A stretch of 39,593 bases of DNA from an uncultured Candidatus Saccharibacteria bacterium (GCA_964613545.1 CAZTHH010000001.1:1-39593), one strand, 5' to 3'. Counted from the first letter of the stretch, positions 1,522 through 39,593 are shown. Numbers and translations: made by a program. The notes: generated by a model not told the origin, from the sequence alone.

Positions 1522-1551
1522 AAGCCAATCAATATGATTGGCTTTTATTTT
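1521..1551. terminator. Bidirectional intrinsic terminator between convergent cca and Cys-rich gene A
   Basis: AAAGCCAATC (1521-1530) / GATTGGCTTT (1536-1545), a 10-bp stem with 5-nt loop. A-run lies upstream and T-run downstream. Confidence 0.75.
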
Positions 1552-7787: not shown

Positions 7788-7858
7788 ATGTCGCACAATA
7801 ATTGTATCATATATTGACTTCCCACGTCTTTTGCTTGATACTAAACAAAAAAATCAAT

Positions 7859-21564: not shown

Positions 21565-21948
21565 TTATTTATTATAGAGTGCTCTTATTTTTGATCCAGC
21601 AACACCATCAGCGGGGAGCCCTTTAAAATTCTGGTATTCAATGAGTGCATCTTTGGTAAGCTGTCCAAAATTTCCAGTTGCTTTGTTTGCAGCGAGGGCT
21701 TTTGCCGCGGGGCCGACGTTTTTCTTTATTAAAAATTGCTGGAGTTTTGTGACGTCTGCACCTTTCATTCCCATCTTTAAGTTGCGCACAGTGCTCTTCT
21801 TCTTTTTCGCTTTTGGCTTTGCTGAATGCGGAGCAGTTTCTAAAGTAATCAATGGGGGATTGGTATATAATTTCTCTGCATTTACAGAAAGCGGGCTACC
21901 GATAAATAAACAGAAAATAAATAAAATTGGTGTAATTTTTTTAATCAT
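21565..21948 (-). CDS. Secreted peptidoglycan-binding domain (PG_binding_1-like) protein
   Basis: 127 aa with a signal peptide. GADVTKLQQFLIKK...GNFGQLTKDALIEYQNFKGLPADGVAG matches the PG-binding repeat pattern. Confidence 0.7.
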   Translation of the reverse strand: MIKKITPILFIFCLFIGSPLSVNAEKLYTNPPLITLETAPHSAKPKAKKKKSTVRNLKMGMKGADVTKLQQFLIKKNVGPAAKALAANKATGNFGQLTKDALIEYQNFKGLPADGVAGSKIRALYNK

Positions 21949-21966: not shown

Positions 21967-23268
21967 CTAATCATGAAAATCATCAGAAGTACTGGATTTC
22001 TTTAATCCCGCAAAAGGATTTTTATCTCCTCGTACCTCAAAATGAAGGTGTGGTCCAGTAGACTTTCCCGTAGATCCAACATACCCGATAATCTGACCTT
22101 GCTTCACGTGTGTCCCTGCAACAGCGGCTACTTTACTCATATGAGCATACATACCCTGAGTACCATTATCAAAATTTTCTACAACATAGAGACCATATCC
22201 GCCATTGTACCCTTGTGAATCAGCAATAAGGATAGTTCCGTCAGCAACTGCAAATATTGGTGTACCTATAGGTCCACGGAAATCAATACCATTCGAACCA
22301 TGCAACAGTTGAGAAATACTTCCCACCCCTTGTGGAAACGGCCATATATATCCATGCGCAATCTGTCCTGATGGTTGTGGTATATTTGTTTCAGGATCAG
22401 TAATTTTCTGGATAGGGGTGATAGCTGGCACAATTGCTGGAGCTTTTACTACAATAGGTGTTTCTACTACAGCGGTAGTCTTTTTTGCTTTATCAGCTTT
22501 CGCCTTTGCGAGAGCAGATTTTTCTTTTGTATCAGCATTCTTAATTTCATTTGCACTTACTCCAACCAAAAAGATAGTATCCCCACCATTTACTTCACTA
22601 GCTTTTTCAAGGAGATTATATTCCACAATATCACGAACCGTCGTGCCATATTTAGTAGCCACACTTTCAGCAGTTTCACCCTTTTTAACAGAATAGGCAA
22701 TACCATTAAGTGGCATAATAGTAAGCACAGTCCCAACTTTTATAAGATCAGCACGTTTTATATCACTGTTTGCATAAATAATGGCATATTTACTAACTTT
22801 TTCTTTTTTTGCAATAGAATCGAGCGTCTCACCCTTTTGCACAACGTGAATACCGAACTTAGAATCACTAATGTAACTTCCATTATCAAAATCAGCTTCA
22901 GTTCCCATCGGACCATTTTTTGACTCAAGTGCTTCATCGCCCACGATAGTCACCGTAGCTGAAGTATCAACATTCTTTAAATCAGTAGTAAGGCTTGGCT
23001 CCAGCAGGGGAACTGTTTGTGAATTATGCACAACATCGTCAGAGAGGGGTAACTCATTAGCTTGTGCATTTTGCGTAAAGAAGTCACTCATAAAAGAGAA
23101 AAATCCAGCATGTGCGGTGAGAGGTGAGATTAGAATTGCAGACATGGCAAAAAAACATACTAGCGCTTTTACCATTGAAAGCTTATAAAATAAAGATATT
23201 TTAGGAGAAACGGCATTTGAAGTAGCAGAAAAGCTCATTTCACCCTTTTTAATTTTAGTATTTTTCAT
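21967..23268 (-). CDS. LysM-domain M23 family metallopeptidase
   Basis: 433 aa with an N-terminal TM/signal segment. Two LysM-like units (HVVQKGETLDSIAKK..., YSVKKGETAESVATKYG...). C-terminal M23 motifs GIDFRG and GSTGKSTGPHLHFEVR. Confidence 0.85.
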   Translation of the reverse strand: MKNTKIKKGEMSFSATSNAVSPKISLFYKLSMVKALVCFFAMSAILISPLTAHAGFFSFMSDFFTQNAQANELPLSDDVVHNSQTVPLLEPSLTTDLKNVDTSATVTIVGDEALESKNGPMGTEADFDNGSYISDSKFGIHVVQKGETLDSIAKKEKVSKYAIIYANSDIKRADLIKVGTVLTIMPLNGIAYSVKKGETAESVATKYGTTVRDIVEYNLLEKASEVNGGDTIFLVGVSANEIKNADTKEKSALAKAKADKAKKTTAVVETPIVVKAPAIVPAITPIQKITDPETNIPQPSGQIAHGYIWPFPQGVGSISQLLHGSNGIDFRGPIGTPIFAVADGTILIADSQGYNGGYGLYVVENFDNGTQGMYAHMSKVAAVAGTHVKQGQIIGYVGSTGKSTGPHLHFEVRGDKNPFAGLKKSSTSDDFHD

Positions 23269-23410: not shown

Positions 23411-23439
23411 TAGACACAATAATGTATAAATTGTATAAT
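23411..23439 (+). promoter_or_regulatory. Promoter of the 872-aa membrane protein gene (TAGACA-17-TATAAT)
   Basis: TAGACA 23411-23416 and TATAAT 23434-23439, with the ATG at 23446 six nt downstream. It sits inside an 11-bp-arm palindrome (23422-23447). Confidence 0.55.
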
Positions 23440-23445
23440 TTATAC

Positions 23446-26064
23446 ATGGAAAAACGCACACAGAAAAAAACTTTTACTCCACTATCAGAAAAAGCCCTGA
23501 AAACAGCCACCATAAGACAACTCCTTGATAAGGGATACGACATTACAAGTCCTGAAGTAATTGCGTCCAATAAACGCGATATCGTAAAATTAGAAGCTAG
23601 CATAAAAGCAAAGGAAGAAAAAATAAAGTCTCGAATTCCTCCAAAAAGTTCAGTAGGGGCACCAGCACCGAGTGACGCTAGAGAGCCTGTAGGTATAACA
23701 GCAGCTGATCCAATTCACAACGAAGAACCAGTAGCGCTAGAAACAACCACTGAAGCAAAAGAAGAAGATACAACACCTGAAGTAATCCCTGAAATAGCCT
23801 CATCACCAATCAAGCAAGTAGAATTACTAGAAAAAGACAAGGAGCCAGTAGCACCACTTGAACAAAAAGATATCCCAGTAATTCATCTTGAACAACTCGA
23901 GAGTAACTTTATCGCAAAGCGTGAAATGTATGTAAAAGAACTCAATAAATACAATACGGAACGTAAAACATGGAGACAGTCAGCGTATAGATTGGGGCAG
24001 TGGCTTGGAATTACTTCCGAAGAAGAACATTTAGCAGAAAAATATCCAAATCTTATTGCATTAAAAAATACATACGATGCCGCTCGAATGACATACAGCG
24101 AGACAGCAATTATTGAAAAAACAGCGGCAATAAAAGCAGAGAATCCAAATATTACAAAAGAAGCACTTACGCAAACGCTCAACGAATACAGAGAAGGGGT
24201 AATAAATAAACGTATTCATCATGAAGAGTACCCAGAACTCACCAATGCGCAAGCAGAAAAACTTCCTCCAAACCGAAAACAAATCTACGACAAACTAGCC
24301 GGTGCATACGGATGGTACGCAAAGGGAACTGGTTTTGGGGCAAAGGTTAAACGTGCAGCTATTTCTACTGCCGTTTTCGGAACTGTTGGTGTATCATTTG
24401 GCGCTGCCGCAGCGATGGGGACCGGAGCATATCTTGGATATCGTTTTGCTAAAGGTGTCATCTCAGCCACTACTTCTGGCATGGTAGTAAAAGTTATTAA
24501 GAACTATCAAGAAAAAAGTATGAAGAAATTCACTGATATGCAAGCCAGCGCAAAAGAAAAAGCACTCTCAGATTTTAATACTGGCATAATCAATCTTGTA
24601 CAATACGAAAATAAATTAAAAGAAATAGAAAAAAGTATTGAAAAGAAAAATCGTAATCAACTCCTTGCTCGAGCAGGGGCAGGACTGCTCGTCGGCTTTG
24701 GTACTTCATATGGAATACAAGCAGCAGGGGGGCAAACACTTTACGAAGATGCATACCGATCAATAAAAGGAGGTGCACCAGAGGGAGGAAGCACCGTACA
24801 TCATCCACAAATAGGGGGCACTCCAATAGAAAAAAAGCCTGGAATGATATCTTCACAAGAAAAGCCAACCCACATTTCTGATTATGCAAAAGTACGTGCA
24901 ACCGAAGGAATCACTCATGCCCTCAAAGCACAACTTGAAAATAACACAGAACTCGCTCAAAAACTTGGATACCCTCTATCAGGAACAACAATGGAGAAAG
25001 CTCATTTCTTAATGAATATGGCAAAATCCCACGGATACATAGATGACACAGGAGAAATACGGGTGGGGGAAGTTGGAGCTGCCTATGTATTAAATGCAGA
25101 TGGAAGTATTACAGAATATGCCCCAGATGGTACAACTTCAGTAGAAACACACGTTGAGGGTGGTTCAAACAATGATCTTTCTGGAGGAAATGAAAGCTAT
25201 GAATACCGTGAACCAATGACAACACAAGGTGACATCACAGGAAAAGGGAATCTAATGAATGAATCCCAAAATAACACCACACAACAAAATTTTAATTCCA
25301 AGGAACCATTGATAGATTTATCTTCAAGAAAAATATCACCCATACCATCAACTCTAAATAACGAACCACTCAAATTACATACAATTGATTCTACGACGAT
25401 ACCAAAAGCTAATGAAAACGGAGGGGGTGGCTATTTCGACGGCTATGATTTCAAAACTCCTGAATACACAGAATCACAACCAGACTACAGCATCGGAAAC
25501 AATAATGATGGGTTACATTTTACAAAACAAGATGGTGGGGCTTTTGTATTACGTAACCAACAAAATCCTCTCAACCAAAAACTATTTAATGTAAGGCAAC
25601 GAATGCAAGGATATAATCCAAGAGGGAAATACTATAATCCTAATGCGGTAAAATGGTCAAAAACAGCACCAGGTAGTGAACCGACAACACACGCAACACC
25701 GACCCCAACACCAAAAGTAATTCCAAGTATCGAAAACATTGAGGCGCACAAACACAATGTAATTGATAAGATATTTGGACATAAAAAATTATTTGGAAAG
25801 CATGTACACGGTGAAGACTCTGAGTCATGGAAAAAAATGAAAAACATGACACTGGATAAAATAATGAATGGAAACAAAAAAGACTTTCCACGTTTTGAAC
25901 GAGATGAGGTAAATGATATTAAATTCCTTATGCGAAAAATAGGAATGGCAACAACTGATCCAAACGGAAAGCCGATAACAGTAGATACCCTGACCAAAAT
26001 CCTCGCAAAAATGGAAGTAGAGCAAAAATTAAACGTCGCAACATTATTAGCAAAAGAACATTAA
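23446..26064 (+). CDS. Large hypothetical membrane protein (872 aa from Met 23446; the track ORF starts at 23422)
   Basis: Long ORF with a charged/coiled N-terminal third. Gly/Ala-rich hydrophobic segments AAISTAVFGTVGVSFGAAAAMGTGAYLGY and LLARAGAGLLVGFGTSYGIQAAGG. Roughly 440-aa C-terminal region with no recognisable motif. Confidence 0.7.
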   Translation: MEKRTQKKTFTPLSEKALKTATIRQLLDKGYDITSPEVIASNKRDIVKLEASIKAKEEKIKSRIPPKSSVGAPAPSDAREPVGITAADPIHNEEPVALETTTEAKEEDTTPEVIPEIASSPIKQVELLEKDKEPVAPLEQKDIPVIHLEQLESNFIAKREMYVKELNKYNTERKTWRQSAYRLGQWLGITSEEEHLAEKYPNLIALKNTYDAARMTYSETAIIEKTAAIKAENPNITKEALTQTLNEYREGVINKRIHHEEYPELTNAQAEKLPPNRKQIYDKLAGAYGWYAKGTGFGAKVKRAAISTAVFGTVGVSFGAAAAMGTGAYLGYRFAKGVISATTSGMVVKVIKNYQEKSMKKFTDMQASAKEKALSDFNTGIINLVQYENKLKEIEKSIEKKNRNQLLARAGAGLLVGFGTSYGIQAAGGQTLYEDAYRSIKGGAPEGGSTVHHPQIGGTPIEKKPGMISSQEKPTHISDYAKVRATEGITHALKAQLENNTELAQKLGYPLSGTTMEKAHFLMNMAKSHGYIDDTGEIRVGEVGAAYVLNADGSITEYAPDGTTSVETHVEGGSNNDLSGGNESYEYREPMTTQGDITGKGNLMNESQNNTTQQNFNSKEPLIDLSSRKISPIPSTLNNEPLKLHTIDSTTIPKANENGGGGYFDGYDFKTPEYTESQPDYSIGNNNDGLHFTKQDGGAFVLRNQQNPLNQKLFNVRQRMQGYNPRGKYYNPNAVKWSKTAPGSEPTTHATPTPTPKVIPSIENIEAHKHNVIDKIFGHKKLFGKHVHGEDSESWKKMKNMTLDKIMNGNKKDFPRFERDEVNDIKFLMRKIGMATTDPNGKPITVDTLTKILAKMEVEQKLNVATLLAKEH

Positions 26065-26432: not shown

Positions 26433-28352
26433 ATGCACAAAGACTTTTTAGATGAACTAAATGACAAACAAGGCGAAGCGGCACGCTATACCGAAGGACC
26501 GCTCCTTATCGTCGCCGGTGCAGGCGCAGGAAAAACAAAAACATTAACCTATCGAATCATTAATCTTGTTCGTGGTGGCGTCGCCCCACACAATATCCTC
26601 GCCGTAACATTCACTAACAAAGCAGCAAAAGAAATGCGTGACCGTACCATCGCGCTCCTTACAGATAGACACTATGATAGCATTCCAATGATATCTACTT
26701 TTCATGCACTCGGCGTACGAATACTCAAAGAACATGCACACGTCCTCGGGCTCACAAAACATTTTGCAATTGCAGATGAAAGCGACGCCATTAGTATTAT
26801 CAAAGATGCACTCAAAGAATTAGATTTAGATCCCAAACAATACGAACCTCGCAAAATAAAAGGTATGATTTCCCGCGCAAAAGGGGACTTCATTTCCCGT
26901 GAAGCATTTGCTCGTGATGCCACCAGTGCATTCCAAGATCTTGTGGGTAAAGTATGGGGCCTCTATGAAGCAGGATTAAAAAAGGAGCAAGCGCTCGACT
27001 TTGATGACTTACTTCTCAAAACAGTACTCCTTCTAAAACAGTACCCTGAAATTAAAACTGCATACCAAGCACGCTGGAAATACATCCACATCGATGAGTA
27101 TCAAGACACTAATGAAGTACAATATGAATTAACGAAACTGCTTGTCGGAAAAGAAGAAAATATCTGCGTGGTTGGAGATACGGACCAAAATATTTATAGC
27201 TGGCGCGGAGCAAATATAAAGAACATGCTCCATTTTGAAAAAGATTATCCGAGCACAAAAATAGTAATGCTTGAGCAAAACTATCGCTCCACAAAAACGA
27301 TCATCGAAGCCGCAAATGCAATCATAAAGAAAAATGTATTCCGCGCAGAAAAAAATCTTTTTACTGAAAACGAAGATGGGCAAACGATCACACTCTACGA
27401 AGCATACGACGAGGGGAGTGAAGCAACATTTGTCGGAGATAAAATACAAGAACTCATAGAAAATGGTACTGCATTACCGAACGATATCGCGGTACTCTAC
27501 CGAGCCAATTTCCAATCTCGTATTTTAGAAGAAGCAATGCTTTCTCGTAATATAAAATACCAAGTTCTCGGCACAAAATTCTTTGACCGCAAAGAAGTCC
27601 GTGATATTCTCTCATACATAAGAGCAGCACTAAACAGAGAGGGGCTTTCTGATATAAAAAGAATTATTAATGTTCCTGCACGAGGAATTGGAAAAGTGAC
27701 ACTCGTAAAATTATTCAGTGGAAATTTTGCTGAGCTTCCTGCTAGTATGCAAATAAAAATAAATAAATTTTATTTATTACTCGATTCTATTCGTGAATAC
27801 ATGGACGGACATACTGCAAGTGAGACCATTAAATTTGTTTTAGAAAAAAGTGGACTCGAAGAAGAATTAAAAAATGGGGGAGAGCTTGAACTCGAACGCC
27901 TCGAAAACGTAAAAGAGCTCGTAACTCTCGCACTCAAGTACGACACCCATGGCGAAGAAAGCATCGACATGCTCCTCACTGATGCATCACTTGCTTCAGA
28001 TCAAGACAGTTTGCTCCACACAAAAGGTGAGGGGGTCAGACTCATGACCGTCCATGCATCAAAAGGACTTGAATTTAAATATGTATTCATTACAGGGCTT
28101 GAGCAAGACTTATTCCCTCATGCTGGAATTGGTGGCAAAAATAAAAGCGACCAAGAAGAAGAGCGCCGACTCTTTTATGTAGCCCTCACTCGCGCTGAAC
28201 ACAAACTCTTTCTCTCATATGCATCTGTCCGTACTATATTCGGCATGCGTCAGGTCACCAGCCCGAGCGAATTCCTTTCTGATATTCCAGACTATTTGAT
28301 AAACATAGAAGAGAATCATTACGGAAAAGGTGATAGAATTGTCTATATATGA
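26433..28352 (+). CDS. pcrA: UvrD/PcrA-family ATP-dependent DNA helicase
   Basis: Start chosen at MHKDFLDELNDKQ, because TGtTAGAAT (26417-26425) lies 7 nt upstream and the 26406 track start falls inside the terminator. Motifs AGAGAGKTKTL, DEYQDTN, QNYRST and VHASKGLEF. Confidence 0.9.
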   Translation: MHKDFLDELNDKQGEAARYTEGPLLIVAGAGAGKTKTLTYRIINLVRGGVAPHNILAVTFTNKAAKEMRDRTIALLTDRHYDSIPMISTFHALGVRILKEHAHVLGLTKHFAIADESDAISIIKDALKELDLDPKQYEPRKIKGMISRAKGDFISREAFARDATSAFQDLVGKVWGLYEAGLKKEQALDFDDLLLKTVLLLKQYPEIKTAYQARWKYIHIDEYQDTNEVQYELTKLLVGKEENICVVGDTDQNIYSWRGANIKNMLHFEKDYPSTKIVMLEQNYRSTKTIIEAANAIIKKNVFRAEKNLFTENEDGQTITLYEAYDEGSEATFVGDKIQELIENGTALPNDIAVLYRANFQSRILEEAMLSRNIKYQVLGTKFFDRKEVRDILSYIRAALNREGLSDIKRIINVPARGIGKVTLVKLFSGNFAELPASMQIKINKFYLLLDSIREYMDGHTASETIKFVLEKSGLEEELKNGGELELERLENVKELVTLALKYDTHGEESIDMLLTDASLASDQDSLLHTKGEGVRLMTVHASKGLEFKYVFITGLEQDLFPHAGIGGKNKSDQEEERRLFYVALTRAEHKLFLSYASVRTIFGMRQVTSPSEFLSDIPDYLINIEENHYGKGDRIVYI

Positions 28353-29143
28353 TGCATACTGCAAAAAAGTCATTGGGGCAGAACTTTCTAAAGTCAAAAC
28401 CCGCACTTATAAAAATGTGTACCGCGGGGGAAGTTACTGACGGAGATTTAGTGATTGAAATCGGCCCAGGGAAGGGAGCACTGACTGAGAAACTTCTTGA
28501 ATACGGAGCGACAGTCATCGCTCTTGAAAAAGACCGTGACCTTATTCCACTCCTAAATGAAAAATTCGCCGAAGAAATACAAAACAAAAAACTGACTATT
28601 ATAGAGGAAGATTGCTTGGAATTTGATCCAAAAAGCCTAAAAGGCAAGAAATATAAGCTTATTGCAAACATCCCATACTATATTACAGGTGCAATTGTAC
28701 GAAAATTCCTCGAAACGGATCATCAACCAGAGAAAATTGTGGTTATGGTCCAAAAAGAAGTAGCAAAACGCATTGTTGCCACAAATGAAGGAGAAAGTAT
28801 CCTCTCTATTAGTGTAAAAGCGTACGGTGAACCAAAATATGAAATGAAAGTAGATAAACGCTATTTTTCCCCAGCACCAAAGGTAGATTCAGCAATTCTC
28901 TCTATTAACAATATAAACAAACAGTCATTTAAAAATCAAAACGAAGAAGGGTACTTTTTTAAAGTGCTTCATGCAGGATTTGCCCACAAAAGAAAAGTCC
29001 TTATAAAAAACTTAGAAGAGGTAGCTCCTAAAAACATAATAGAGCAATCGTTTAACACACTGACACTTTCTCCAAAAGTACGTGCAGAAGAAATACCCGT
29101 ATCCACCTGGCTCACACTCACTGAACTACTCCAGAAAAACTAG
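28349..29143 (+). CDS. rsmA: 16S rRNA (adenine1518/1519-N6)-dimethyltransferase
   Basis: 264 aa. SLGQNFL and the SAM motif VIEIGPGKGALT. ATGA overlap with the helicase stop codon. Confidence 0.9.
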   Translation: MMHTAKKSLGQNFLKSKPALIKMCTAGEVTDGDLVIEIGPGKGALTEKLLEYGATVIALEKDRDLIPLLNEKFAEEIQNKKLTIIEEDCLEFDPKSLKGKKYKLIANIPYYITGAIVRKFLETDHQPEKIVVMVQKEVAKRIVATNEGESILSISVKAYGEPKYEMKVDKRYFSPAPKVDSAILSINNINKQSFKNQNEEGYFFKVLHAGFAHKRKVLIKNLEEVAPKNIIEQSFNTLTLSPKVRAEEIPVSTWLTLTELLQKN

Positions 29144-29176: not shown

Positions 29177-30055
29177 ATGGAAAATTCATATTTACCAAGC
29201 TCACAATTCATAAAGCGAGTCATCGTTATTTTCTCTGTAATAGGAGCAGTCATTCTTATTACAAAAATCTCTCCGAATATAAAAAATAAACTCATTACCA
29301 CCGGTACTATAAATAGTGTCATGGTAAAAGATGTAGTTACTCAAGATAGCAACAAAAATGGGATTCAAGACTGGGAAGAGTCATTATGGGGGCTTGATCC
29401 TACAAAAGACGGGGATGCAAATAAAGAATTCATCGAAGCAAAGAAAAGGAAAGCTGGTATTAGTTCTAAAAATGCCCAAATAACAGATTCAACCGACCAA
29501 ATTTCACGTGAACTATTTGTGATTGCGTCTTCTCTAAAACAAAATGGTGCAGGGAAGGAAAGCTTAGACGTACTCGCTCAGACAATCGGTGGGGAAGTTA
29601 CTCCACTTACTTTTAATGATGTCTATCACATGAATGACATACAGATAGTCGCAACAACGAAAAAAAATATGACAGTATATCAAGAAAACCTCATCCGTCT
29701 TGGTAAAAAATATACATTACTTGGTATTGGCTCAGAACTCGACATCCTCGCCACCGCGCTTGATCGAAATGACAGCACAATGCTTGAAGGACTACCCCAG
29801 ATAAAAGCAGCATATCAAAACTTTGCAAAAGACCTAAAAAAAATTCCCGTTCCACTTGACCTAGGACCAAACCACATAACAATTATGAACGGATTGGACC
29901 ATACAGGAGTATCACTCGACACGATGGCTAAAATGATTGAAGACCCATTAACAGGTCTTTCAGGAATGCTCACGTATCGTATCTATAATGATCAATTTGT
30001 TGATGGAATAAATACGGTGAATAAATATTTATATAGTGATATAATAAAACGATAG
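29177..30055 (+). CDS. Hypothetical N-terminally anchored membrane protein (292 aa), first gene of the envelope cluster
   Basis: TM helix VIVIFSVIGAVILITKI, with the rest predicted to be extracytoplasmic. TATACT (29164-29169) lies 7 nt before the ATG. Confidence 0.6.
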   Translation: MENSYLPSSQFIKRVIVIFSVIGAVILITKISPNIKNKLITTGTINSVMVKDVVTQDSNKNGIQDWEESLWGLDPTKDGDANKEFIEAKKRKAGISSKNAQITDSTDQISRELFVIASSLKQNGAGKESLDVLAQTIGGEVTPLTFNDVYHMNDIQIVATTKKNMTVYQENLIRLGKKYTLLGIGSELDILATALDRNDSTMLEGLPQIKAAYQNFAKDLKKIPVPLDLGPNHITIMNGLDHTGVSLDTMAKMIEDPLTGLSGMLTYRIYNDQFVDGINTVNKYLYSDIIKR

Positions 30056-30056
30056 T

Positions 30057-33000
30057 ATGAACTTGTTTACCTACATGCAAAAAAAGACCCTCGCAGGAAT
30101 TCTCGTTTTTGCTATTTTTATTTCTCCAATAGTTCCAGTTTCATATAGCTACGCAGAAATTAAAGATCCAAACTATATATATACAGGAGGCATGCTGGGT
30201 GATTCTGCAAGTGGTACTACTGCGGACGATATCCTTAATGATCAAACGGGGGGGCTTGCATCGAACGCAGATCCGCTCGACACTGATACAACTGGTGGTA
30301 ATACAAATAAAATTGCATTATCTGTTTTTGGCTGCGGAAATGGCCCAAAGCGTTTTATTAAATCAATACAAGACCTTTCTTCGCTTTATGAGGCACAAAA
30401 GGTACTCAAAAGTGAAGGTTTAGCTGGAGGCCTTTCTCCGCTTACAAATGTTCTCGGCACAACAGCAAAAACTGCAGTAGAAATAAAAGCATTAGCAAAA
30501 GATATTAAAGATGCAAAATTAATTGCTGGTGCATCTACACTTGCAGCGCAACAAACAGCTGATAAAGAAACTCAAAAAAGTCTTGTTCTTATTAATTCAA
30601 AAATAGACAAACAGCTTGCTGCTGCCGAAGAACAAAAAGTATGGGAGCAGTGTTTAAACGGAATCGCCTACAAAGTCACCAAACACCAAATTGCAAACAT
30701 GACCCAAAAGACTATCAATTGGGTCAATTCTGGTTTTGCAGGAGATCCACTATTTATTAAAGACCAGAAAACATTTTTCAAAAATATTGAGACAAAAACA
30801 ATGCGTTCAATCCTTGGACCTATTTCTGCATACAATAACACTACCGTCTATCCATATGGCCAAGACTTAGCACGCAGTATGATAAACGGCTTTAAGACAA
30901 CCTTTGAAGAAAGAGCGAAATCGACACTCCAACAATCATTACCTTCAGGCAGTAGCCCAGATGATTTTACTAATGATTTTACTCAAGGAGGATGGTCAGC
31001 ATGGGAATCATTTACTTTAAATCCACAAAACAATCCACTTGGATTTCAAATGATTACGACTCAGCACATTGCAGACGAAGCGGCAAAAGATGTACAAGCT
31101 CAAAAGGATGAACTCACTCAAAAAGATTTTATTGGGCAAAAGAAGTGCGTGGAATGGGAAGCAGACGCAACGAAAGAAGATAAAAATCATCCATTTACAC
31201 TTAATTCAACAAAATTGAATGACCCAGATGCACAAGATAAATGTATCCGATATGAAACAATCACTCCGGGAGGGGTGACAGAGGCACTTATCAATGCACA
31301 AATTACATCACCAATAAGACAGCTTGAAATTGCAAATACAATAAATGAATCCCTTGATTCAGTATTTACTGCGCTCATTAGCCAACTTTCAACAAAAGGA
31401 TTTTCAAGTCTTAGTTCATTTAGTACACAAAACAACGAAATTACCGCAGACTATACACCAAAACGATACTATAATAGTTATGGATATCTGATCCAGGTCA
31501 GCAAAACGCATGGGGGATGGTATAACAAAGGGGGTAAATTTGATATTACTCGAGACTTAGATGATATCTATACTAATGATGCAACAGGCAAGAAAACATT
31601 AGTGAAAAAAGGTATTATCACTACACAAAAAGACTATCTTGAAGCAGCAACAGCAGCAATGAAAGGACTCGGACCGATACTCCCTGCAATTGGGAAACTT
31701 GATTATTGTATTCCGGGACCAAACCCAGGATGGGAACAACGAACTGATGAAAAAATTGCAGAATTGGTAGATTACATGCAGAATCAAAGTTTCAATGGTA
31801 CTAAAAAAAGTATGCTTCCAAAGTGGGTCTCTGGAAACACATTTGGGACATTTACAGGAATTGGTGCAGCGGCAGGTACTGTTATTCCAGGAGTAGGAAA
31901 TGCAGTGGGAGCACTTGTCGGACTCGCGATTGACGTCGGGCTATCTGTTTACGATAAAGTGCAAAAGAATAAAAATGAAAACAATAAAGTTGAACTTGAA
32001 GCACAATACGCCAAAGCAGAAGCAAACTTCTATGCAAATCAAAACGCACAGATTGCAAACTTTAGCTCACAATTCCAAAGTTATAGTGACTATGTTCACA
32101 AGAAATACGACACGATCGTTGAACCTAAACTTCCTGATGGAAGTAATAATCCACAATATTTACCAATGGCACAAGCCGGTCTTGATATTGTAAAAAATCT
32201 TGATCGCTATGATGCAAACGTAAAACAAGCATATCAAGATTATGATGAGGTAATTGGTCAAACAAAAACAAATATTCGTAAACTAGAAGCGATTAAAAAA
32301 CGTGTAGATGAAATCGTAAAAGGTGCACGTAAGCGTTGGGCAAAAGAAATTACTGACAAATTAAGTGCTCCTGGGCAAAAAATTGATTGGAGTTGTTTTG
32401 ATACATCTCTCGGACAAGGAGGTGATGGTTCTAACGATCTCGCCGATGGGGCAAACGGGACACGAACACAAGAGGGAACTGCGCTTGGTGCAGATTTTGA
32501 TACACCGCAACAAGACACCCAAGCACCAGTAGGAAAATGTACCACAGAAGTTACCGCAACAGGAATTTCTGTAAACGGAGATGCACCATTTAAATACTCT
32601 TGGTCACTCAAGACGGGCCAAGATGTAGTAACACTCTCAGCGGGGGAATACAAGGTAGATAATAATCAACTCTTCTCTGCAAAGGTAGATGCGTACAAAG
32701 ATTCTGGGCTTGCAAAACTTACACTCACTGTTGAAGACGGTAATGGTGATAAAGCAACCAAAACAAAAGACATAACAATCGCACATAAAGACGTAGATGC
32801 GCGAGGAGTAACCTGTCCAAAACCACCAGAAGCACCAGGAACACCATATGACATTACCGCAAATATTGTAAGCGATACTACAGCAGATCTGTCATGGTCA
32901 GCTCCTACAAACACAGGAACTTCTCCAATTACTGACTACACAATAGAATATGCACCGTATGCATCATTTGTATGGACTAAGTTTGCACACACGGCAAGCA

Positions 33001-33479
33001 GTACAACAAAAAGAACAGTTACCGGATTAGATAATAAAAATAAAACATATAAATTTAGAATTGCTGCGGTTAATGCCGTTGGATCAAGTGCAACAAGCCA
33101 ACCAGTAACACCGAAAGTTACTTATAACCCACAATTTGATGTCACCGCAGCCGAAGACACTGATTTTGTAAAACAATTAGCTGGAATGTGTATGGTAAAC
33201 ATTACTATCACAAACAAGAATTCAGCAAACGCATCAACATACAATTGGACACTATCGACAGAATTTGGAAATCAATATGTATCAGTAAATCCAGTCAAAG
33301 GAACTGGTGCGACAAACCAACCACCAAATCCAGCATTTAGTATTGATGCACATAAATCATACGGTAAAACAAAAATCAATCTAACACGCGACAACATTAA
33401 TGGAACAAAAGATACTGCAGTAAAAGAAATTACCATTACCAAAATGAACACAAATCAAAGTGGAAATACGTGTCAGTAA
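30057..33479 (+). CDS. Giant secreted protein (1140 aa) with one fibronectin type III domain
   Basis: Signal peptide ...FISPIVPVSYSYAEIK. Gly-rich hydrophobic segment GIGAAAGTVIPGVGNAVGALVGLAIDVGL. FN3-like block (about nt 32826-33116): DLSWSAPTNTGTSPITDYTIEY...YKFRIAAVNAVGSS. Starts 1 nt after the previous stop codon. Confidence 0.8.
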   Translation: MNLFTYMQKKTLAGILVFAIFISPIVPVSYSYAEIKDPNYIYTGGMLGDSASGTTADDILNDQTGGLASNADPLDTDTTGGNTNKIALSVFGCGNGPKRFIKSIQDLSSLYEAQKVLKSEGLAGGLSPLTNVLGTTAKTAVEIKALAKDIKDAKLIAGASTLAAQQTADKETQKSLVLINSKIDKQLAAAEEQKVWEQCLNGIAYKVTKHQIANMTQKTINWVNSGFAGDPLFIKDQKTFFKNIETKTMRSILGPISAYNNTTVYPYGQDLARSMINGFKTTFEERAKSTLQQSLPSGSSPDDFTNDFTQGGWSAWESFTLNPQNNPLGFQMITTQHIADEAAKDVQAQKDELTQKDFIGQKKCVEWEADATKEDKNHPFTLNSTKLNDPDAQDKCIRYETITPGGVTEALINAQITSPIRQLEIANTINESLDSVFTALISQLSTKGFSSLSSFSTQNNEITADYTPKRYYNSYGYLIQVSKTHGGWYNKGGKFDITRDLDDIYTNDATGKKTLVKKGIITTQKDYLEAATAAMKGLGPILPAIGKLDYCIPGPNPGWEQRTDEKIAELVDYMQNQSFNGTKKSMLPKWVSGNTFGTFTGIGAAAGTVIPGVGNAVGALVGLAIDVGLSVYDKVQKNKNENNKVELEAQYAKAEANFYANQNAQIANFSSQFQSYSDYVHKKYDTIVEPKLPDGSNNPQYLPMAQAGLDIVKNLDRYDANVKQAYQDYDEVIGQTKTNIRKLEAIKKRVDEIVKGARKRWAKEITDKLSAPGQKIDWSCFDTSLGQGGDGSNDLADGANGTRTQEGTALGADFDTPQQDTQAPVGKCTTEVTATGISVNGDAPFKYSWSLKTGQDVVTLSAGEYKVDNNQLFSAKVDAYKDSGLAKLTLTVEDGNGDKATKTKDITIAHKDVDARGVTCPKPPEAPGTPYDITANIVSDTTADLSWSAPTNTGTSPITDYTIEYAPYASFVWTKFAHTASSTTKRTVTGLDNKNKTYKFRIAAVNAVGSSATSQPVTPKVTYNPQFDVTAAEDTDFVKQLAGMCMVNITITNKNSANASTYNWTLSTEFGNQYVSVNPVKGTGATNQPPNPAFSIDAHKSYGKTKINLTRDNINGTKDTAVKEITITKMNTNQSGNTCQ

Positions 33480-33497
33480 TAGTAAACTATAAAATAT

Positions 33498-36400
33498 ATG
33501 GAACAAAACCCTAAAAGAACAAAAGCACTCATTATCACCTTCATCGTAGCACTTGGACTACTTATGGGAGTGTATTATCTATTCTTTAGTGGCAATGCTC
33601 CATTTAGCACAAAATCAGGAGGTACGGCTAAATCATTTTTTCCATTTCTTGGGACAAGTAAGAACAAAGATTTAAATACCATACAAAATGGTGAAAGTGG
33701 TCCAGTACTTACTGGAGGAGAGACAACAACAGATACTAGTGGTACAGGTATGCTAGCTGGGGGACAAAGTAATGGTACTAGCGGAGGTACGAGCACAAAT
33801 GATCAAATTACAGGAGGGGACACTACCACGACAGACGGAACAAGTACGGGGCAAGGAACAAATACTGGAGGAATAACTACACCGCTAACTCAATGTGCCG
33901 ATGGTATCGATAATGATGGAAATGGAGTACTCGATGCTGATGATGCTTCATGTCACACAGATAATAATATTGCAGATACGTATACACCAGAAAAAACATT
34001 AGAATTTACAATTCCAACCAAAAACTTTCCAATACCAACAAGCACATTTATTCCACAGTGTAGTGACAAAAAAGACAACGATGGTGATGGAAAAATTGAT
34101 ACACAAGATCCAGGATGTCATACAGACAATGACATAGCTAAGCCATATGATAAAAATAGAGTCACAGAATTTAGTCTCGATTCCACAAAAGGAAAAATTG
34201 ATGCTTGTGTAGTAAGTAGCGGAACAATACCAAGCACTGGAGGGACTATCCCAGTTCCAACAGGGCCAATTGTTATTCCACAGTGTAGTGACGGAATTGA
34301 TAATAACAATGACGGGCCATTTGATATTCAAGATCCAGGATGTCACTCAGACCTGAATCCAAATAATGGGCTATCATACAACCCTCAAAAAGTGCTTGAA
34401 ATGATAACAGCTCCTAGTATTCCACAGTGTAGTGATGGACTTGATAATGACGGAAATGGTTTACGGGATGCTCAAGACCCAACATGTTTTATCGTACCAG
34501 CTGACCCAAAATCATATAATCCCATGCTCTCACCAGAAGGTAAGGGATTTTCAAATGGTGTACCAGTTCCAGTCCCAGCAACAACTACTGGAACAACAAC
34601 GACCACAGGATCTGGAACTACCACAACAGGAGGTGTCTTTGGCCCAGCGACAACCACCACAGGAGGTACTGGCACATCAGGAACAACAAATGGGGGGAGT
34701 ACTGCGGGAAGCACCGTAGGTGGCGGAGCTGTGGGTGGTACAGTAGGAGGAGGCGCCGGAGGAGCAATTATCACACAGTGCTCCGATGGGCTGGATAATG
34801 ACCTAGATGGGAAAGCTGATGCGCTTGACCCAGGCTGCCACAGCGACAAAAATCCTCAGAACAACGGGCAAAACGGAACACCTAATACATATGACCCAAA
34901 AATAAACCTAGAAATCATCGCAAAAAAAGAACAGAAAAGTCTTTTTGCTGGACTATGGCAATCACTCAAAGAAAACACCGCAGGGAACAAAGTGCTTTCA
35001 AAAATAGTACTTGCTGTAAATACACCAACAGCGACACTTCAAGTAGCAGGGTCACCAGCAGGAACACTAACTGGGGTGCCAACACTTGCTACTCCACTTA
35101 GCACAACTACCGGCAGTACGGTCATCACGTCAACAGCCGTAAACAGTGGTGTACCAATACAAACCCTAAGCGGTATCCAAACACTTCCACTCACTATGTT
35201 TGGTATCTACCCTGGGCAACAGCTTCCACTAACCCCAGATCAACTCAGTGCATACCTTGATTCTTTGGGTGCCAACAAACAGGTTGTCGATAGTAATGGA
35301 ATAATTTGTCCTGACACAAAAAATAATCCAGTAATCACACAATGTAGTGATGGCAAGGATAACGATGGCGATAAAAAAATCGACGCGCAAGATCCAGGAT
35401 GTCACTTTGATTTAAACGCTCGTAATACTAAATCTTATACCCCTACAAAAAATGATGAAAAAGAAGTACTACCGCAGTGTTCAGATAAACTTGATAATGA
35501 TAAAGATGGAAAATTTGATAGTGCTGATCCTGATTGTCACTATGACTTTAATCCACTAAACCCAGGTTCATTCTTAAAAACAAAAAACAGCGAAGCAAGT
35601 ATCACGAACGGAAATGGAAGTGGTAATGGGGGAGCGCTTGGATACATACCTCAATGCCGTGACGGACTTGATAACGATGGCGATGGACTTTCTGATAAAC
35701 TTGATCCAGGATGTCACCTTGACCTCAATGCAAAAAACGCATCTTCCTATATTGGAGACAAAACATCAGAACTTGATTTTATTCCAGCGTGTATTGATGG
35801 GAAAGATAACGATGGCGATGGACTTTCTGATGCTAATGATCCGGGGTGTCACTGGGACTTAAACGCAGCACGAGTAGAGTTATGCAGTGATGGAAAAGAT
35901 AATGACGGAGACAAACTTGCAGACAAAAACGACCCAGCATGTCATACGGACGGAAATGCAAGTAATATTCTTTCATATGACAAAGACCTTGGGGTGGATA
36001 CATATACTCCATACAAATACAGCGAATTTAATCTCGTACCACAATGCCGTGATTTCGATGCAAATGGTAAAGCCCGTGACAATGATGGGGATGGACTCGC
36101 AAATGATCTTGACCCAGGCTGTCACACAGACTTAAATGCATCACATAATGGAAAAAAAGGCGCAATAAATACCTATGACCCAGAAAAGACGCTCGAGCTT
36201 AACTACGTTCCACAATGCAGTGATGGAAAAGATAATGATAAAGATGGACTCCTTGATGACAAGGACCCAGGCTGTTATATAAACAAAAATGTAGCTGTCG
36301 CAAAGGATTATAATCCAGAGGATAGTAATGAAATGGAGTTTGACTGGAACGGCAACAAGGGAACAGCAACAAAAACTACCGCACCAAATTGCCCAGACAC

Positions 36401-37544
36401 AAACATCACGCTCAAATTCACAAAAGAAGAACAAGATGAGCTCAATCAACTCATTAAAGAATTCTATGCGCTTTCACCAAATCTAAAGAATAGCGTTGAT
36501 GTCGCAAGTGAACAAGACAAAAAAATCCAGTACGATAAGCTTACTGCTGTATCTAATGCTCTTACTGAACAATGCGTGCAAGATAAAGCAATTGCTTCAT
36601 ACAAAGGACCGAAAGAAACAATGCGAAATCCATACTTTACCACTGACCCAAACTACTATTATCTTTCACAAGATGCTTCATACGACATGAAAGATGCATC
36701 ATTCGTATCACAAATTGCAGCAAACTTCTATCGTTTTACAAAAAAAGTCTACGATGTAAATGACACAGATCAAACTGACAAGGTAGTAGGTACTGATACT
36801 GATTACTGGAATCACCAGCGCGCATTTAGTTATCACCCAGATGAACCTTCTGGTGTAGACAATAGTCCTGGATGGCTCGGTAAGTGGGATGAAAAGATCA
36901 AAATTTACGAAACTAGTTACCCAGGAAGCGTGTACCCAGCACTCGCAAAGAAAAACCACTACCTCGCCGCTAACGTAGGGTATGCCCTCGACAAAGTATT
37001 AGGATTACGTGACACAAATGAAGACTGTTTAGATGCAAGTACTGGATACTTTGCTAAAAATGATAAAGATGTTTGTTACAACAGACCAGCGTACGGGCTC
37101 TACGACATAAAAAATATTGTAGACAAAGCATGGAGAGAAGGACGTAAACTCAAAGATAGTGAAATTCTAAGAGCGACAGCTGCACCAAACTGGAACCAAA
37201 TAATAAAAGGGGATTACGAAATACGATCTATTCAAGAAACATTAGATATTTATATAAATCCTCCTTATGGTGACGTTAAAGGTAAATACTTCTGTAATTT
37301 CGGCTCTGATACAACAAAAGATATTTTGGCAAATATTAGCCCAGACAATCACAGTCAAATTGTCTGCCCACTATTTAAAAGCTTAAGGGGTAATCTAGAT
37401 CTCTTAAAGACAACAGATATTCATGAGCTCAAACGCACTATTGATGATTATGCACTCCGCCTAAAATCAGGAGACCCAGCACTCTTCTACTGGAAGAATG
37501 CAATGCCTGACCAAAGCTTTGAAGCACAATTCCAAATCTGGTAA
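33498..37544 (+). CDS. Giant surface protein (1348 aa) with 12 Cys-bracketed Asp-rich (Ca-binding-like) modules
   Basis: N-terminal TM anchor ALIITFIVALGLLMGVYYLFF. Thr/Gly-rich low-complexity linkers (about nt 34575-34765). Twelve CxDGxDNDGDGxxDxxDPxCH repeats. Roughly 420-aa non-repetitive C-terminal domain. Confidence 0.85.
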   Translation: MEQNPKRTKALIITFIVALGLLMGVYYLFFSGNAPFSTKSGGTAKSFFPFLGTSKNKDLNTIQNGESGPVLTGGETTTDTSGTGMLAGGQSNGTSGGTSTNDQITGGDTTTTDGTSTGQGTNTGGITTPLTQCADGIDNDGNGVLDADDASCHTDNNIADTYTPEKTLEFTIPTKNFPIPTSTFIPQCSDKKDNDGDGKIDTQDPGCHTDNDIAKPYDKNRVTEFSLDSTKGKIDACVVSSGTIPSTGGTIPVPTGPIVIPQCSDGIDNNNDGPFDIQDPGCHSDLNPNNGLSYNPQKVLEMITAPSIPQCSDGLDNDGNGLRDAQDPTCFIVPADPKSYNPMLSPEGKGFSNGVPVPVPATTTGTTTTTGSGTTTTGGVFGPATTTTGGTGTSGTTNGGSTAGSTVGGGAVGGTVGGGAGGAIITQCSDGLDNDLDGKADALDPGCHSDKNPQNNGQNGTPNTYDPKINLEIIAKKEQKSLFAGLWQSLKENTAGNKVLSKIVLAVNTPTATLQVAGSPAGTLTGVPTLATPLSTTTGSTVITSTAVNSGVPIQTLSGIQTLPLTMFGIYPGQQLPLTPDQLSAYLDSLGANKQVVDSNGIICPDTKNNPVITQCSDGKDNDGDKKIDAQDPGCHFDLNARNTKSYTPTKNDEKEVLPQCSDKLDNDKDGKFDSADPDCHYDFNPLNPGSFLKTKNSEASITNGNGSGNGGALGYIPQCRDGLDNDGDGLSDKLDPGCHLDLNAKNASSYIGDKTSELDFIPACIDGKDNDGDGLSDANDPGCHWDLNAARVELCSDGKDNDGDKLADKNDPACHTDGNASNILSYDKDLGVDTYTPYKYSEFNLVPQCRDFDANGKARDNDGDGLANDLDPGCHTDLNASHNGKKGAINTYDPEKTLELNYVPQCSDGKDNDKDGLLDDKDPGCYINKNVAVAKDYNPEDSNEMEFDWNGNKGTATKTTAPNCPDTNITLKFTKEEQDELNQLIKEFYALSPNLKNSVDVASEQDKKIQYDKLTAVSNALTEQCVQDKAIASYKGPKETMRNPYFTTDPNYYYLSQDASYDMKDASFVSQIAANFYRFTKKVYDVNDTDQTDKVVGTDTDYWNHQRAFSYHPDEPSGVDNSPGWLGKWDEKIKIYETSYPGSVYPALAKKNHYLAANVGYALDKVLGLRDTNEDCLDASTGYFAKNDKDVCYNRPAYGLYDIKNIVDKAWREGRKLKDSEILRATAAPNWNQIIKGDYEIRSIQETLDIYINPPYGDVKGKYFCNFGSDTTKDILANISPDNHSQIVCPLFKSLRGNLDLLKTTDIHELKRTIDDYALRLKSGDPALFYWKNAMPDQSFEAQFQIW
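33891..36278 (+). repeat. Array of 12 in-frame coding repeats (about 22-aa Cys-DxDxDG-Cys module plus variable spacer)
   Basis: Repeated DNA words such as attccacagtgtagtga (three copies) and a 27-nt identical pair at 35670-35696 and 35805-35831. Confidence 0.85.
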
Positions 37545-37553
37545 TAGTGATAC

Positions 37554-37591
37554 AAAAAACACCCTATTAAAAATTTTAATAGGGTGTTTTT
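37554..37591 (+). terminator. Intrinsic terminator after the 1348-aa gene
   Basis: AAAAAACACCCTATTAAAA / TTTTAATAGGGTGTTTTT long stem followed by a T-run. Confidence 0.8.
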
Positions 37592-37594
37592 GCT

Positions 37595-37623
37595 TTCATT
37601 CTGATAGATAAAGGTGATATAAT
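37595..37623 (+). promoter_or_regulatory. Promoter with extended -10 (TTCATT-17-TGaTATAAT)
   Basis: TGaTATAAT 37615-37623. A roughly 27-nt leader containing AAAGGAAA (37639-37646) precedes the GTG at 37657. Confidence 0.55.
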
Positions 37624-37656
37624 AATCATACAGCATATAAAGGAAATTATTACTTT

Positions 37657-39593
37657 GTGAAAAAGATTTTCTCATCCATTTTCATACTTGTCATCACCGC
37701 GTCTCTCTTCGCGCCTTTTAGTGTAAACCTACAAGACAATAAAATAACACCGAGCATAGCTGAGGCAGGTACTAATTGTAAATTTGTCAGTACCGCATTC
37801 AGCCCAGCAGGACAACAGGCTAAAGGATGGAAAGCAGCAAAACCAAAACCTGGAGTGACCTTAACAATAGAAACTTCAGATTGTATTGGGGAAATTTTTA
37901 ATGGGTTTTTATACGAACATGATGGATGGAGTGCAAATGACAGTATACTTTCCATCTCAGATCATAAAATCACTCAAAATAAATTAGTTATTGACCTAAC
38001 ACCAGGAGAAGAAGGCTGTAATAATGGTGACTGCCAAATAATATATCGTTTATTTCTACAACACGGGGACAAATCCCCTGGTAACTTTGCAGTATATAAT
38101 TCAGGAGATGTATCCGGTGCAGCAGATGAACTCGACTATGATTGTGCCGACCCAACAAATTGCATACAAACAGATTCATGGATAGAAAACCAAGCAACTG
38201 GTGCTCAACAATTAAGACAAATAACTGCGAGTATTGTATCGGGGAAAGATACGCTAACAATATCCGGAGATGATCCTGATACAACAAGACTAACACTTTT
38301 AGGAACAACAGATACACTAACAATAGGAATTTACGACAGCTCAGATACCCTCCTTGCCCCAGGAACAGTTGGTGGAAAAAATCCTTTTGTATACAACATC
38401 GTAAATGATTTAGTAAAAAATGGGGGAGGAGTAAAATACAATACAATATTTAGTGGGCTACAACCAGCAACAACATACACCATTAAACTTAAACCTTCTT
38501 TTGCGAATACTGCTCTTATTAATCTAAACCAAGAACAAAATATTTCAGCAACAACACTGGATGCAAACGGGCAAGTGGTTAATCCAAATGGAACAGTTGA
38601 ACAAAACACTTTGGGTAAACAACAAAACCCTGATGGGTTACCTATATGTAGCTTAAATCCTTGGGCCACCAAAGGTACATTCACTGGCTGTTTACTTCAA
38701 GCATTTTATTATCTCGTATTTGAACCAACCTCTTGGCTTTTTGCAAAAGCAGGGCAATTCTTTGATAGCACCTTTGCATATTCTATTTCTGATACTTCGT
38801 ACCGTACGGGGTTCGTAGTCGGGGGATGGGGAATTGTACGTGATATCTGTAATGTGTTCTTTATTTTTGTGCTTCTCTATGTTGCCTTCTCTACCATCCT
38901 CAATATTCATGGATTTAAAACAAAAGAAATGATTATCAATGTAGTCCTCATTGGTATCCTGATAAACTTTAGTTTGTTTACGACACAAGTTATTATCGAT
39001 ACTTCAAATATACTAGCAAGAGTATTTTATAATTCAGAAAGTATCCGGCAAGAAAAAGAAAAACCAAATCAGCAATCAGGAGATACGAAAAGCCAATTAA
39101 ATGAAATTTCGCTCTCTGCAGGATTAGTAGGGAAAATTGACCCCCAAAAAATCCTTGCTGCACAAAGCTCTGTTTCCACAAATGCAATTGGTGAAGACGC
39201 AGATAACACAACATGGTTCATTACTATTCTGATGTCGAGTATTTTAAACGTCGTCGGATTTATTACTTTCCTCACCGTTGGTCTGTTATTTATCGCTCGA
39301 GTAATTGGGTTATGGATTGCTATGGTTGTCGTGCCTTTTGCATTCTTTTCATACACAGTACCGGCAATGCAGGGAATGGATACATTAGGCTGGAAGAAGT
39401 GGTGGCCGGAAACCTTAAAGATGGCATTTATGGCACCAGTCTTTATGTTCTTTATTTATATTCTTCTCCGATTCGTTGAAAAAGGATTTAATATGGTAGC
39501 AGATTCTCAAGGTACAGGAGCGACTGGTAGTGGAATGCTCGCAGTGATTATCCCGTTCCTTTTCATTATGATTTTCCTTCTTAAGGCAAAAGA
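37657..39593 (+). CDS. Polytopic membrane protein with large N-terminal ectodomain, possibly VirB6/TrbL-like (3' end beyond window)
   Basis: Open reading frame from GTG 37657 to the window edge (645 codons, no stop), translated by hand and absent from the supplied track. Signal peptide VKKIFSSIFILVITASLFAPF, a roughly 340-aa Cys-containing domain, then at least 6 hydrophobic helices (e.g. ICNVFFIFVLLYVAFSTIL, ILNVVGFITFLTVGLLFIARVIGLWIAMVVVPFAFF). The CDS call is solid; the family assignment is weak. Confidence 0.8.
   Translation, partial: MKKIFSSIFILVITASLFAPFSVNLQDNKITPSIAEAGTNCKFVSTAFSPAGQQAKGWKAAKPKPGVTLTIETSDCIGEIFNGFLYEHDGWSANDSILSISDHKITQNKLVIDLTPGEEGCNNGDCQIIYRLFLQHGDKSPGNFAVYNSGDVSGAADELDYDCADPTNCIQTDSWIENQATGAQQLRQITASIVSGKDTLTISGDDPDTTRLTLLGTTDTLTIGIYDSSDTLLAPGTVGGKNPFVYNIVNDLVKNGGGVKYNTIFSGLQPATTYTIKLKPSFANTALINLNQEQNISATTLDANGQVVNPNGTVEQNTLGKQQNPDGLPICSLNPWATKGTFTGCLLQAFYYLVFEPTSWLFAKAGQFFDSTFAYSISDTSYRTGFVVGGWGIVRDICNVFFIFVLLYVAFSTILNIHGFKTKEMIINVVLIGILINFSLFTTQVIIDTSNILARVFYNSESIRQEKEKPNQQSGDTKSQLNEISLSAGLVGKIDPQKILAAQSSVSTNAIGEDADNTTWFITILMSSILNVVGFITFLTVGLLFIARVIGLWIAMVVVPFAFFSYTVPAMQGMDTLGWKKWWPETLKMAFMAPVFMFFIYILLRFVEKGFNMVADSQGTGATGSGMLAVIIPFLFIMIFLLKAK

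Follow-up and report, generated by a model that had tools for sequence, protein, structure and literature searches.

Four consecutive plus-strand genes occupy positions 29177 to 39593 of a 39,593-nucleotide stretch of DNA (GCA_964613545.1, CAZTHH010000001.1:1-39593; the whole stretch is called the window below), catalogued under an uncultured Candidatus Saccharibacteria bacterium. Comparison with related loci indicates that these genes very probably constitute the 5' half of a chromosomal type IV secretion system (T4SS) locus in a Paceibacteria/Nomurabacteria-like member of the Patescibacteria. The first-pass annotation of this DNA had delimited the same four genes, and the coordinates of the open reading frames (ORFs) match it. 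The genes and the features within and between them, with lengths in amino acids (aa) and structural features partly from AlphaFold2 (AF2) models, are as follows.

29177-30055, plus strand: gene 1, ORF of 292 aa
30057-33479, plus strand: gene 2, ORF of 1140 aa, secreted, with a signal-like helix at aa 11-29
30312-32396, plus strand: conserved core of gene 2 (approximately aa 86-780), from the alignment of orthologues; mostly long helices
32841-33113, plus strand: FN3 domain of gene 2 (aa 929-1019), PF00041, E 9e-13, 48.7 bits against a cut-off of 25
33498-37544, plus strand: gene 3, ORF of 1348 aa, with an N-terminal transmembrane (TM) anchor at aa 11-29 (nucleotides 33528-33584)
33894-36275, plus strand: repeat array of gene 3, 12 acidic Cys-bracketed repeats (C.D..DND.DG..D..DP.C), NF033662
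36381-37544, plus strand: conserved C-terminal module of gene 3, from orthologue alignments
37555-37591, plus strand: terminator-like hairpin 3' of gene 3, 17-bp stem and T-run, -15.5 kcal/mol
37615-37623, plus strand: extended -10-like motif TGaTATAAT 5' of gene 4, read by eye
37657-39593, plus strand, running off the window: gene 4, 645 codons, still open, GTG start
37768-38676, plus strand: ectodomain of gene 4 (approximately aa 38-340), Cys-containing and beta-rich, with an FN3-like sandwich at about aa 220-305 (AF2)
38680-39588, plus strand: membrane domain of gene 4 (AF2, pLDDT ~90)

The spacers between genes 1 and 2, 2 and 3, and 3 and 4 measure 1, 18, and 112 nucleotides (nt), in agreement with the spacing first described, and the terminator/promoter pair that had been placed before gene 4 is represented by the hairpin and the TGaTATAAT motif, both of which fall within the 112-nt spacer. 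The hairpin at 37555-37591 is intrinsic-terminator-like; the motif at 37615-37623 went unreported in a two-hexamer promoter scan because it has no good -35 element. Genes 2 and 3 are ORFs of 1140 and 1348 codons in DNA of 38-40% G+C, with hundreds to thousands of homologues each, and are therefore not chance ORFs.

The identity of the cluster emerges from the company that its homologues keep. Homologues of gene 4, ranging from 665 to 1196 aa, number in the hundreds in the Patescibacteria. Around the three read first, the upstream order is DUF5663-UvrD-KsgA-[~295 aa]-[660-1090 aa]-[300-860 aa]-gene-4 homologue, the three genes directly ahead of the gene-4 homologue being homologues of window genes 1, 2, and 3 by BLASTP. 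The downstream order is gene-4 homologue-[~320 aa]-PrgI/VirB3-TraC-like/TrsD-VirB4-[~330 aa]-T4SS_pilin+VanY-[~450 aa, PG_binding_1], beyond which lie jag-yidC in three loci, then yidD-rnpA in two, and dnaA in one. A scan with one genome per species added 54 further loci (related loci are labelled L001 and so on, and P0002 is a gene-4 homologue on a 170-kb contig), and the same gene order recurs in about 45 species-level genomes. The entire series uvrD-ksgA-g1-g2-g3-g4-d317-PrgI-TrsD-VirB4-d328-pilin/VanY-d496 is seen in L002, L004, and the gene table of the P0002 contig, while L001 shows it from g4 onwards; in L004, Pfam identifies the neighbours as PrgI (1.2e-9), P-loop_TraG (1.1e-23), T4SS_pilin (7e-4), and PG_binding_1 (3.7e-10). 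Among the 40 loci with at least 7 kb of upstream sequence, 37 carry gene 1, 36 carry gene 2, and 28 carry gene 3, and hidden Markov models (HMMs) of the families raise the totals to 40 loci for gene 1 and 41 for gene 2. VirB4 and TrsD each follow the gene-4 homologue in 35 of the 37 loci with at least 6.5 kb downstream, PrgI/VirB3 does so in 34, and the loci read further also contain a VirB2-like pilin protein downstream. The early proposals that the cluster begins a type IV secretion locus and that its ATPases lie past the end of the window are thus borne out by the relatives, in which pilin genes lie downstream as well and the four genes are co-conserved.

The system itself is already known. 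An unusual T4SS without relaxase and coupling protein was shown to be indispensable for one Saccharibacterium's growth as an epibiont (Wang et al. 2023, PMC10633639), and a survey of the phylum (Quiñonero-Coronel et al. 2025, PMC12102498) recognizes a VirB4 clade that is specific to the Patescibacteria and akin to MPF-FATA systems, accompanied by TrsD, PrgI/VirB3, VirB6, and VirB2-like pilins and located near dnaA, rnpA, and ksgA, with relaxases nearly absent. A 2025 review treats the Patescibacteria T4SS as an established newcomer (PMC12857230), and in the literature it is regarded as non-conjugative, probably moving proteins or other macromolecules across the epibiont-host interface. The window very probably carries the first part of an origin-proximal, relaxase-less, MPF-FATA-like locus, the Paceibacteria-type version of this described system. 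The suggestion that it represents an undescribed system must accordingly be withdrawn, and what is new is limited to the three unannotated accessory genes 1-3.

Gene 4, the presumptive channel component, combines a signal-like N terminus with a roughly 340-aa ectodomain that contains 9 Cys and with six long helices (aa 342-377, 385-414, 422-458, 515-557, 579-616, and 626-644), an architecture that hydropathy and AF2 support as it was originally read; hydropathy by itself resolves five peaks in addition to the signal peptide. It has the polytopic character, with at least five TM helices, of TrbL/VirB6 proteins. Its membrane domain is the most conserved part of the cluster, with 43 invariant columns in 120 sequences. 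The ectodomain is variable between orthologues, is poorly modelled by AF2, and yields weak FN3-type Foldseek matches only (E 1e-3 to 5e-2). It also resembles the downstream T4SS_pilin + VanY protein of relatives (phmmer, 1e-8 to 3e-12, against L002 18749-20134, L004 18348-19979, L008 17189-18637, and L020 10270-11736), which suggests, at the sequence level, a beta-rich domain common to VirB6-like and pilin-like components.

Gene 1 encodes a bitopic protein, whose single N-terminal TM helix (aa 11-29 by hydropathy) had been noticed from the outset, followed by a probably helical ectodomain. Just outside the membrane, at aa 57-75, lies an invariant acidic motif, D-x-N-x-N-G-I-x-D-W-E-E-x-L-W-G-L-D-P, which may be akin to bacterial TSP3/EF-hand-like Ca2+ loops, a lead to which one distant member of the family adds a precomputed match to PF18884. 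Full-length orthologues with 30-31% identity occupy the same slot in relatives. No match to gene 1 was obtained in Pfam, NCBIfam, or PDB sequences. We also considered gene 1 as a candidate for the missing VirB8, an NTF2-like bitopic protein (VirB8/PrgL/TcpC). This candidate appears untenable on sequence grounds, the family profile finding no VirB8-type match in PDB sequences and no match in Pfam.

The gene 2 product comprises a conserved core and a C-terminal part (aa 790-1140) that is lineage-variable and unshared with the orthologues compared. In the core, Cys93/199/364/396/551 are invariant and Cys780 is nearly so, and the motifs NWVNSGF.GDP, NDF..GGW..W, ETxTPG, and LDYCIPGPNP stand out; positional orthologues are recovered by BLASTP at 4e-73 and 5e-54. 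The core family, with 8,510 cluster representatives at E<=1e-3, is unannotated: FN3 is the sole match of gene 2 in Pfam and NCBIfam, the family profile finds nothing meaningful in PDB sequences, and the core gives a poor AF2 model (pLDDT 55.7) for which Foldseek returns generic helical bundles only (E >0.7). The signal-like helix, the FN3 domain, and the Gly-rich hydrophobic stretch (approximately aa 607-625) noted in the first-pass annotation are all present, with the correction that the Gly-rich stretch is unconserved in orthologues.

Gene 3 opens with a conserved MExNPK(K/R)(S/T)KA segment and TM anchor. The N-terminal anchor, the Thr/Gly-rich linkers (30% T, 26-32% G), and the 12 Cys-bracketed modules described earlier have all held up, with NCBIfam NF033662 matching in 12 stretches (2e-75, 248 bits against a cut-off of 41) and a strict regular expression counting 11 modules; this acidic repeat is the sole match of gene 3 in Pfam and NCBIfam. 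The conserved C-terminal module contains a Cys-bracketed helical segment, CPD..L.FT..E..EL..L...FY.L.P.LK...C, and an extreme C terminus of the form ...FE..F.IW. Orthologues range from 162 to 1843 aa with 0-19 acidic repeats (regular-expression count), yet retain the anchor, the roughly 100-aa Cys-bracketed module, and an E...(I/V/L/M)W tail; the giant size is therefore a variable spacer. The C-terminal Trp is invariant in 14 of 14 aligned orthologues, and of the complete orthologues listed, 257-1843 aa long, almost all carry E...(I/V/L/M)W at the very end, mostly ...LNIW. A conserved aromatic tail confined so strictly to the terminus has the look of a docking or sorting signal.

The slot occupied by gene 3, immediately before the VirB6-like gene, differs from lineage to lineage. 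A gene 3-type protein fills it in L002, L004, L006, L008-L034, L046, L050, and L051, and in some divergent lineages it is empty, gene 2 abutting the VirB6-like gene. At L042 5996-9493, L045 7767-9725, L048 7488-9707, and L038 1-1206, we observed unrelated signal-peptide proteins of 652-1165 aa that share a C-terminal ...YEYYF... motif. The third slot thus seems open to exchange between two families, each of which ends in an aromatic tail. A hairpin comparable to that in the window was found at the same junction only in L025, L033, L034, L038, and L051 among the related loci compared, the junction between the third-slot and VirB6-like genes being short or overlapping in most relatives. Such a hairpin may act as an attenuator controlling stoichiometry.

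The products of genes 1-3 are envelope proteins exported through Sec, and the genes are inherited together with the channel gene 4. Taking these findings together, we propose, at roughly even odds, that they build the extracellular, wall-spanning, or host-contact part of the T4SS. Gene 1 would provide a membrane-anchored protein with its acidic motif, and gene 2 a secreted protein with a disulfide-containing core rich in helices and an Ig/FN3 tail that can be swapped. Gene 3 would be an N-anchored stalk whose acidic, probably Ca2+-binding repeats present the conserved C-terminal module, with Ca2+ stiffening a stalk of adjustable length. Gene 4 itself is very probably the extended channel subunit in the VirB6 position; it begins with a Sec signal, continues through a variable beta-rich ectodomain and 6-7 TM helices, and is predicted to end, past the window, in a cytoplasmic tail rich in Lys. 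The hairpin after gene 3 could tune the stoichiometry so that surface proteins are made in large numbers and channel subunits in smaller ones, and genes 1-3 may be functional analogues of PrgA/PrgB/PrgC of pCF10. A more specific form of this proposal, which we advance tentatively and with slightly less assurance, is that genes 1 and 2 and the variable protein of the third slot jointly form an unrecognized extracellular T4SS module, a wall-spanning host-contact structure docking on the VirB6 ectodomain. It is comparably conceivable, though short of an even bet, that such a module fills the roles for which no adhesin and hardly any VirB8 is on record in the phylum, with the third-slot proteins as lineage-swappable heads or cargo. 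Their recognition through the aromatic C-terminal tails, ...LNIW or ...YEYYF..., is put forward with the same reserve.

Several observations weigh against the reading of the four genes as the start of this T4SS locus. The window ends inside gene 4, and VirB3, VirB4, and the other downstream genes are seen in relatives only. Gene 4 has no direct match in Pfam or NCBIfam, and TrbL in Pfam matches none of 33 close gene-4 homologues at E<=1, a negative that must be read with the Pfam library used, which apparently lacks PF19590 and PF26593, proteins with precomputed matches to these scoring nothing. Alignment of the gene-4 membrane profile with PrgH, TrwI, and TcpH by hhalign was no better than with controls, the family profile found nothing meaningful in PDB sequences, and Foldseek against the PDB, with the whole gene 4 model as the query, placed no T4SS/VirB6 chain in the top 50 despite the confident membrane domain. 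With the Pfam matches that do exist falling below the gathering score, gene 4 could be a polytopic protein unrelated to VirB6/TrbL, an analogue recruited to the VirB6 position. We consider this improbable, as PF04610 TrbL is the top Pfam match of two independent distant positional orthologues, L054 and L058 (2.6e-4 and 4e-4; 21.3 and 20.6 bits, below the cut-off of 25.9), covering profile positions 27-191 and 50-175 of 215, and gene 4 aa 390-607 align with L054 aa 92-290 at E 3e-29, overlapping the PF04610 region. Moreover, the gene-4 family HMMs give TrwI and PrgH 11-17 bits versus <=3.5 bits for five control membrane proteins, precomputed PF19590 TrbL_3 matches occur on 9 of 120 listed gene-4 homologues (labelled "weak" for P0002), and single members show faint NCBIfam matches to TrbL_P (0.021) and CD3337/EF1877 (0.13). 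Published searches likewise retrieve VirB6 homologues near virB4 in the phylum (PMC12102498). Gene 4 is thus probably VirB6-homologous, an extended subunit in the VirB6 position, through a sequence link to TrbL/VirB6 that is transitive and weak; of the initial VirB6/TrbL assignment, position and topology stand, and homology stands weakly, by way of the two sub-threshold orthologues. A different objection takes the relatedness of the VirB4/VirB3/TrsD set to monoderm conjugation machinery, along with the tyrosine recombinase gene at 6864-7796, as signs of a conjugative element (an integrative and conjugative element or plasmid) transferring DNA, which is exceedingly improbable: the recombinase lies about 22 kb away among housekeeping neighbours and looks like XerC/D, and the locus sits at the same chromosomal place, from ksgA to jag-yidC/rnpA/dnaA, in dozens of species. 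Relaxases were found in only 103 genomes of the survey, rarely near virB4 (PMC12102498). The domain scan of window ORFs found no relaxase and no VirD4/TcpA-type coupling protein, and this, together with the housekeeping context, led us to reject a conjugative MPF-FATA element.

The place of genes 1-3 in the T4SS is the more debatable matter. The main rival holds that they are general surface/adhesion proteins, mere neighbours lodged between ksgA and the T4SS genes, which we regard as unlikely but of some weight. The genes ksgA and uvrD are equally conserved neighbours though unrelated to secretion, so synteny is a weak argument for genes 1-3; a strong terminator-like hairpin and a -10-like motif stand between genes 3 and 4, both in the window and in its closest relatives; L058 has VirB6-VirB3-TrsD-VirB4 directly after ksgA, without genes 1-3; unrelated families take the third slot in some lineages; and no similarity to known T4SS components was detected in PDB sequences or, with the profiles of genes 1, 2, and 3, among the ORFs of R388, pCW3, and the first 45 kb of pCF10. 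Against this, genes 1 and 2 stay immediately 5' of the VirB6-like gene even in loci whose membrane domains share only about 28-35% identity. In five lineages (L041, L044, L053, L054, and L059), gene 2 abuts or overlaps the start of the VirB6-like gene with a gap of -1 to 6 nt, which indicates operon linkage and co-transcription. Export to the envelope, common to all three proteins, is also what one would expect of the extracellular components that a monoderm T4SS is missing.

Upstream, the cluster adjoins chromosomal genes, of which ksgA and those that drew our attention are as follows.

28349-29143, plus strand: ksgA, rRNA dimethyladenosine transferase, phmmer E ~1e-90 to PF00398 RrnaAD-labelled genes, same position in relatives
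23422-26064, plus strand: 880-aa Cys-free protein with a Gly/Ala-rich hydrophobic centre and a weak HlyE match (0.008)
21967-23268, minus strand: LysM + Peptidase_M23 protein
21565-21948, minus strand: small PG_binding_1 protein
6864-7796, minus strand: 310-aa XerC/D-looking tyrosine recombinase with an N-terminal SAM-like domain
4213-5925, minus strand: 570-aa protein with a treble-clef zinc finger
1551-3335, minus strand: 594-aa protein with a treble-clef zinc finger

The ksgA gene is a housekeeping gene marking the upstream boundary of the cluster and no component of it; it ends 33 nt before gene 1, is upstream in 35 of the 40 related loci, as uvrD is, and is preceded in the window by uvrD and DUF5663. 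With its CCA-adding enzyme, GlmS, PGI, PNPase, ComM, XerC/D-like recombinase, M23/LysM peptidase, UvrD, and KsgA, the window is ordinary housekeeping chromosome, and it shows the position near ksgA with housekeeping neighbours that is a feature of the Patescibacteria chromosomal T4SS locus. Scans of the window for tRNAs and Rfam families found nothing. The recombinase, among its housekeeping neighbours, gives no sign of marking a cluster-bearing mobile element. The PG_binding_1 and LysM/M23 proteins, about 6 kb upstream of gene 1, could be wall-remodelling partners, because VirB1-like candidates with M23/LysM domains are reported in the phylum in the 2025 survey (PMC12102498). For the 880-aa protein, phmmer showed similarity to two ORFs only, the one holding its position in L034 (9e-14) and one in L038 (2e-4) that sits just upstream of the VirB6-like gene; proteins of 1348-1442 aa hold its position in L002/L003 and the P0002 contig. 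The 594- and 570-aa proteins match only zf_Tbcl and zf_Tbcl_2, one finger being N-terminal and the other C-terminal, and are otherwise unannotated.

The locus itself is one more instance of a described system, and its interest lies in what that system does: of all T4SSs, that of the Patescibacteria is the first shown to be one its owner needs in order to grow. If the role proposed here is correct, genes 1-3 would offer specific candidates for the apparatus of host contact in the phylum's largest class, among them an unannotated family with about 8,500 representatives. The identity of the third-slot protein, the repeat number, and the Ig/FN3 tails could then be compared with host range as a simple comparative handle.

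Among known systems, the closest is the Patescibacteria T4SS typified by Ca. Southlakia epibionticum SEML1_0006-0019. Like it, the present locus is chromosomal and near the replication origin, next to ksgA in the window and continuing to jag-yidC, rnpA, and dnaA in relatives; the relatives' core likewise comprises VirB6-like, PrgI/VirB3, TrsD, VirB4, and VirB2-like pilin proteins and wall hydrolases, with no relaxase or coupling protein nearby. The published work differs in that, in the parts available, it lists only components recognizable by existing HMMs, leaves the three genes that separate ksgA from the VirB6-like gene unnamed as components, and records adhesins as "not detected" and VirB8 as nearly absent. 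The NF033662 acidic double-disulfide repeat, of which gene 3 carries 12 copies, describes a repeat and not a function, and it covers neither the conserved anchor nor the C-terminal ...NIW module of gene 3. Gene 4 shares with extended VirB6 proteins, such as the 832-aa TcpH of pCW3 (PMC12857230), at least five hydrophobic helices, large hydrophilic domains, and, as seen in relatives, a place beside VirB4 and VirB3; it differs in its extras, namely, a beta-rich extracellular domain at the N terminus and a Lys-rich tail at the C terminus, and TcpH, itself without a Pfam match, shows no significant alignment with the gene 4 family. The Prg/Pcf system of pCF10 from Enterococcus faecalis, the MPF-FATA prototype, differs in being plasmid-borne, with a relaxase, a VirD4-like coupling protein, and DNA transfer, in LPXTG-anchored surface proteins without sequence similarity to genes 1-3, and in PrgH, which at 266 aa has no large ecto- or endodomain. 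It is nevertheless a monoderm T4SS with a VirB6-like PrgH, a VirB3-like PrgI, and the VirB4 PrgJ, and it encodes the large surface proteins PrgA (891 aa), PrgB (1305 aa), and PrgC directly upstream of the channel genes prgD-L, so that prgA-prgB-prgC ahead of the channel genes parallels genes 1-3 ahead of gene 4.

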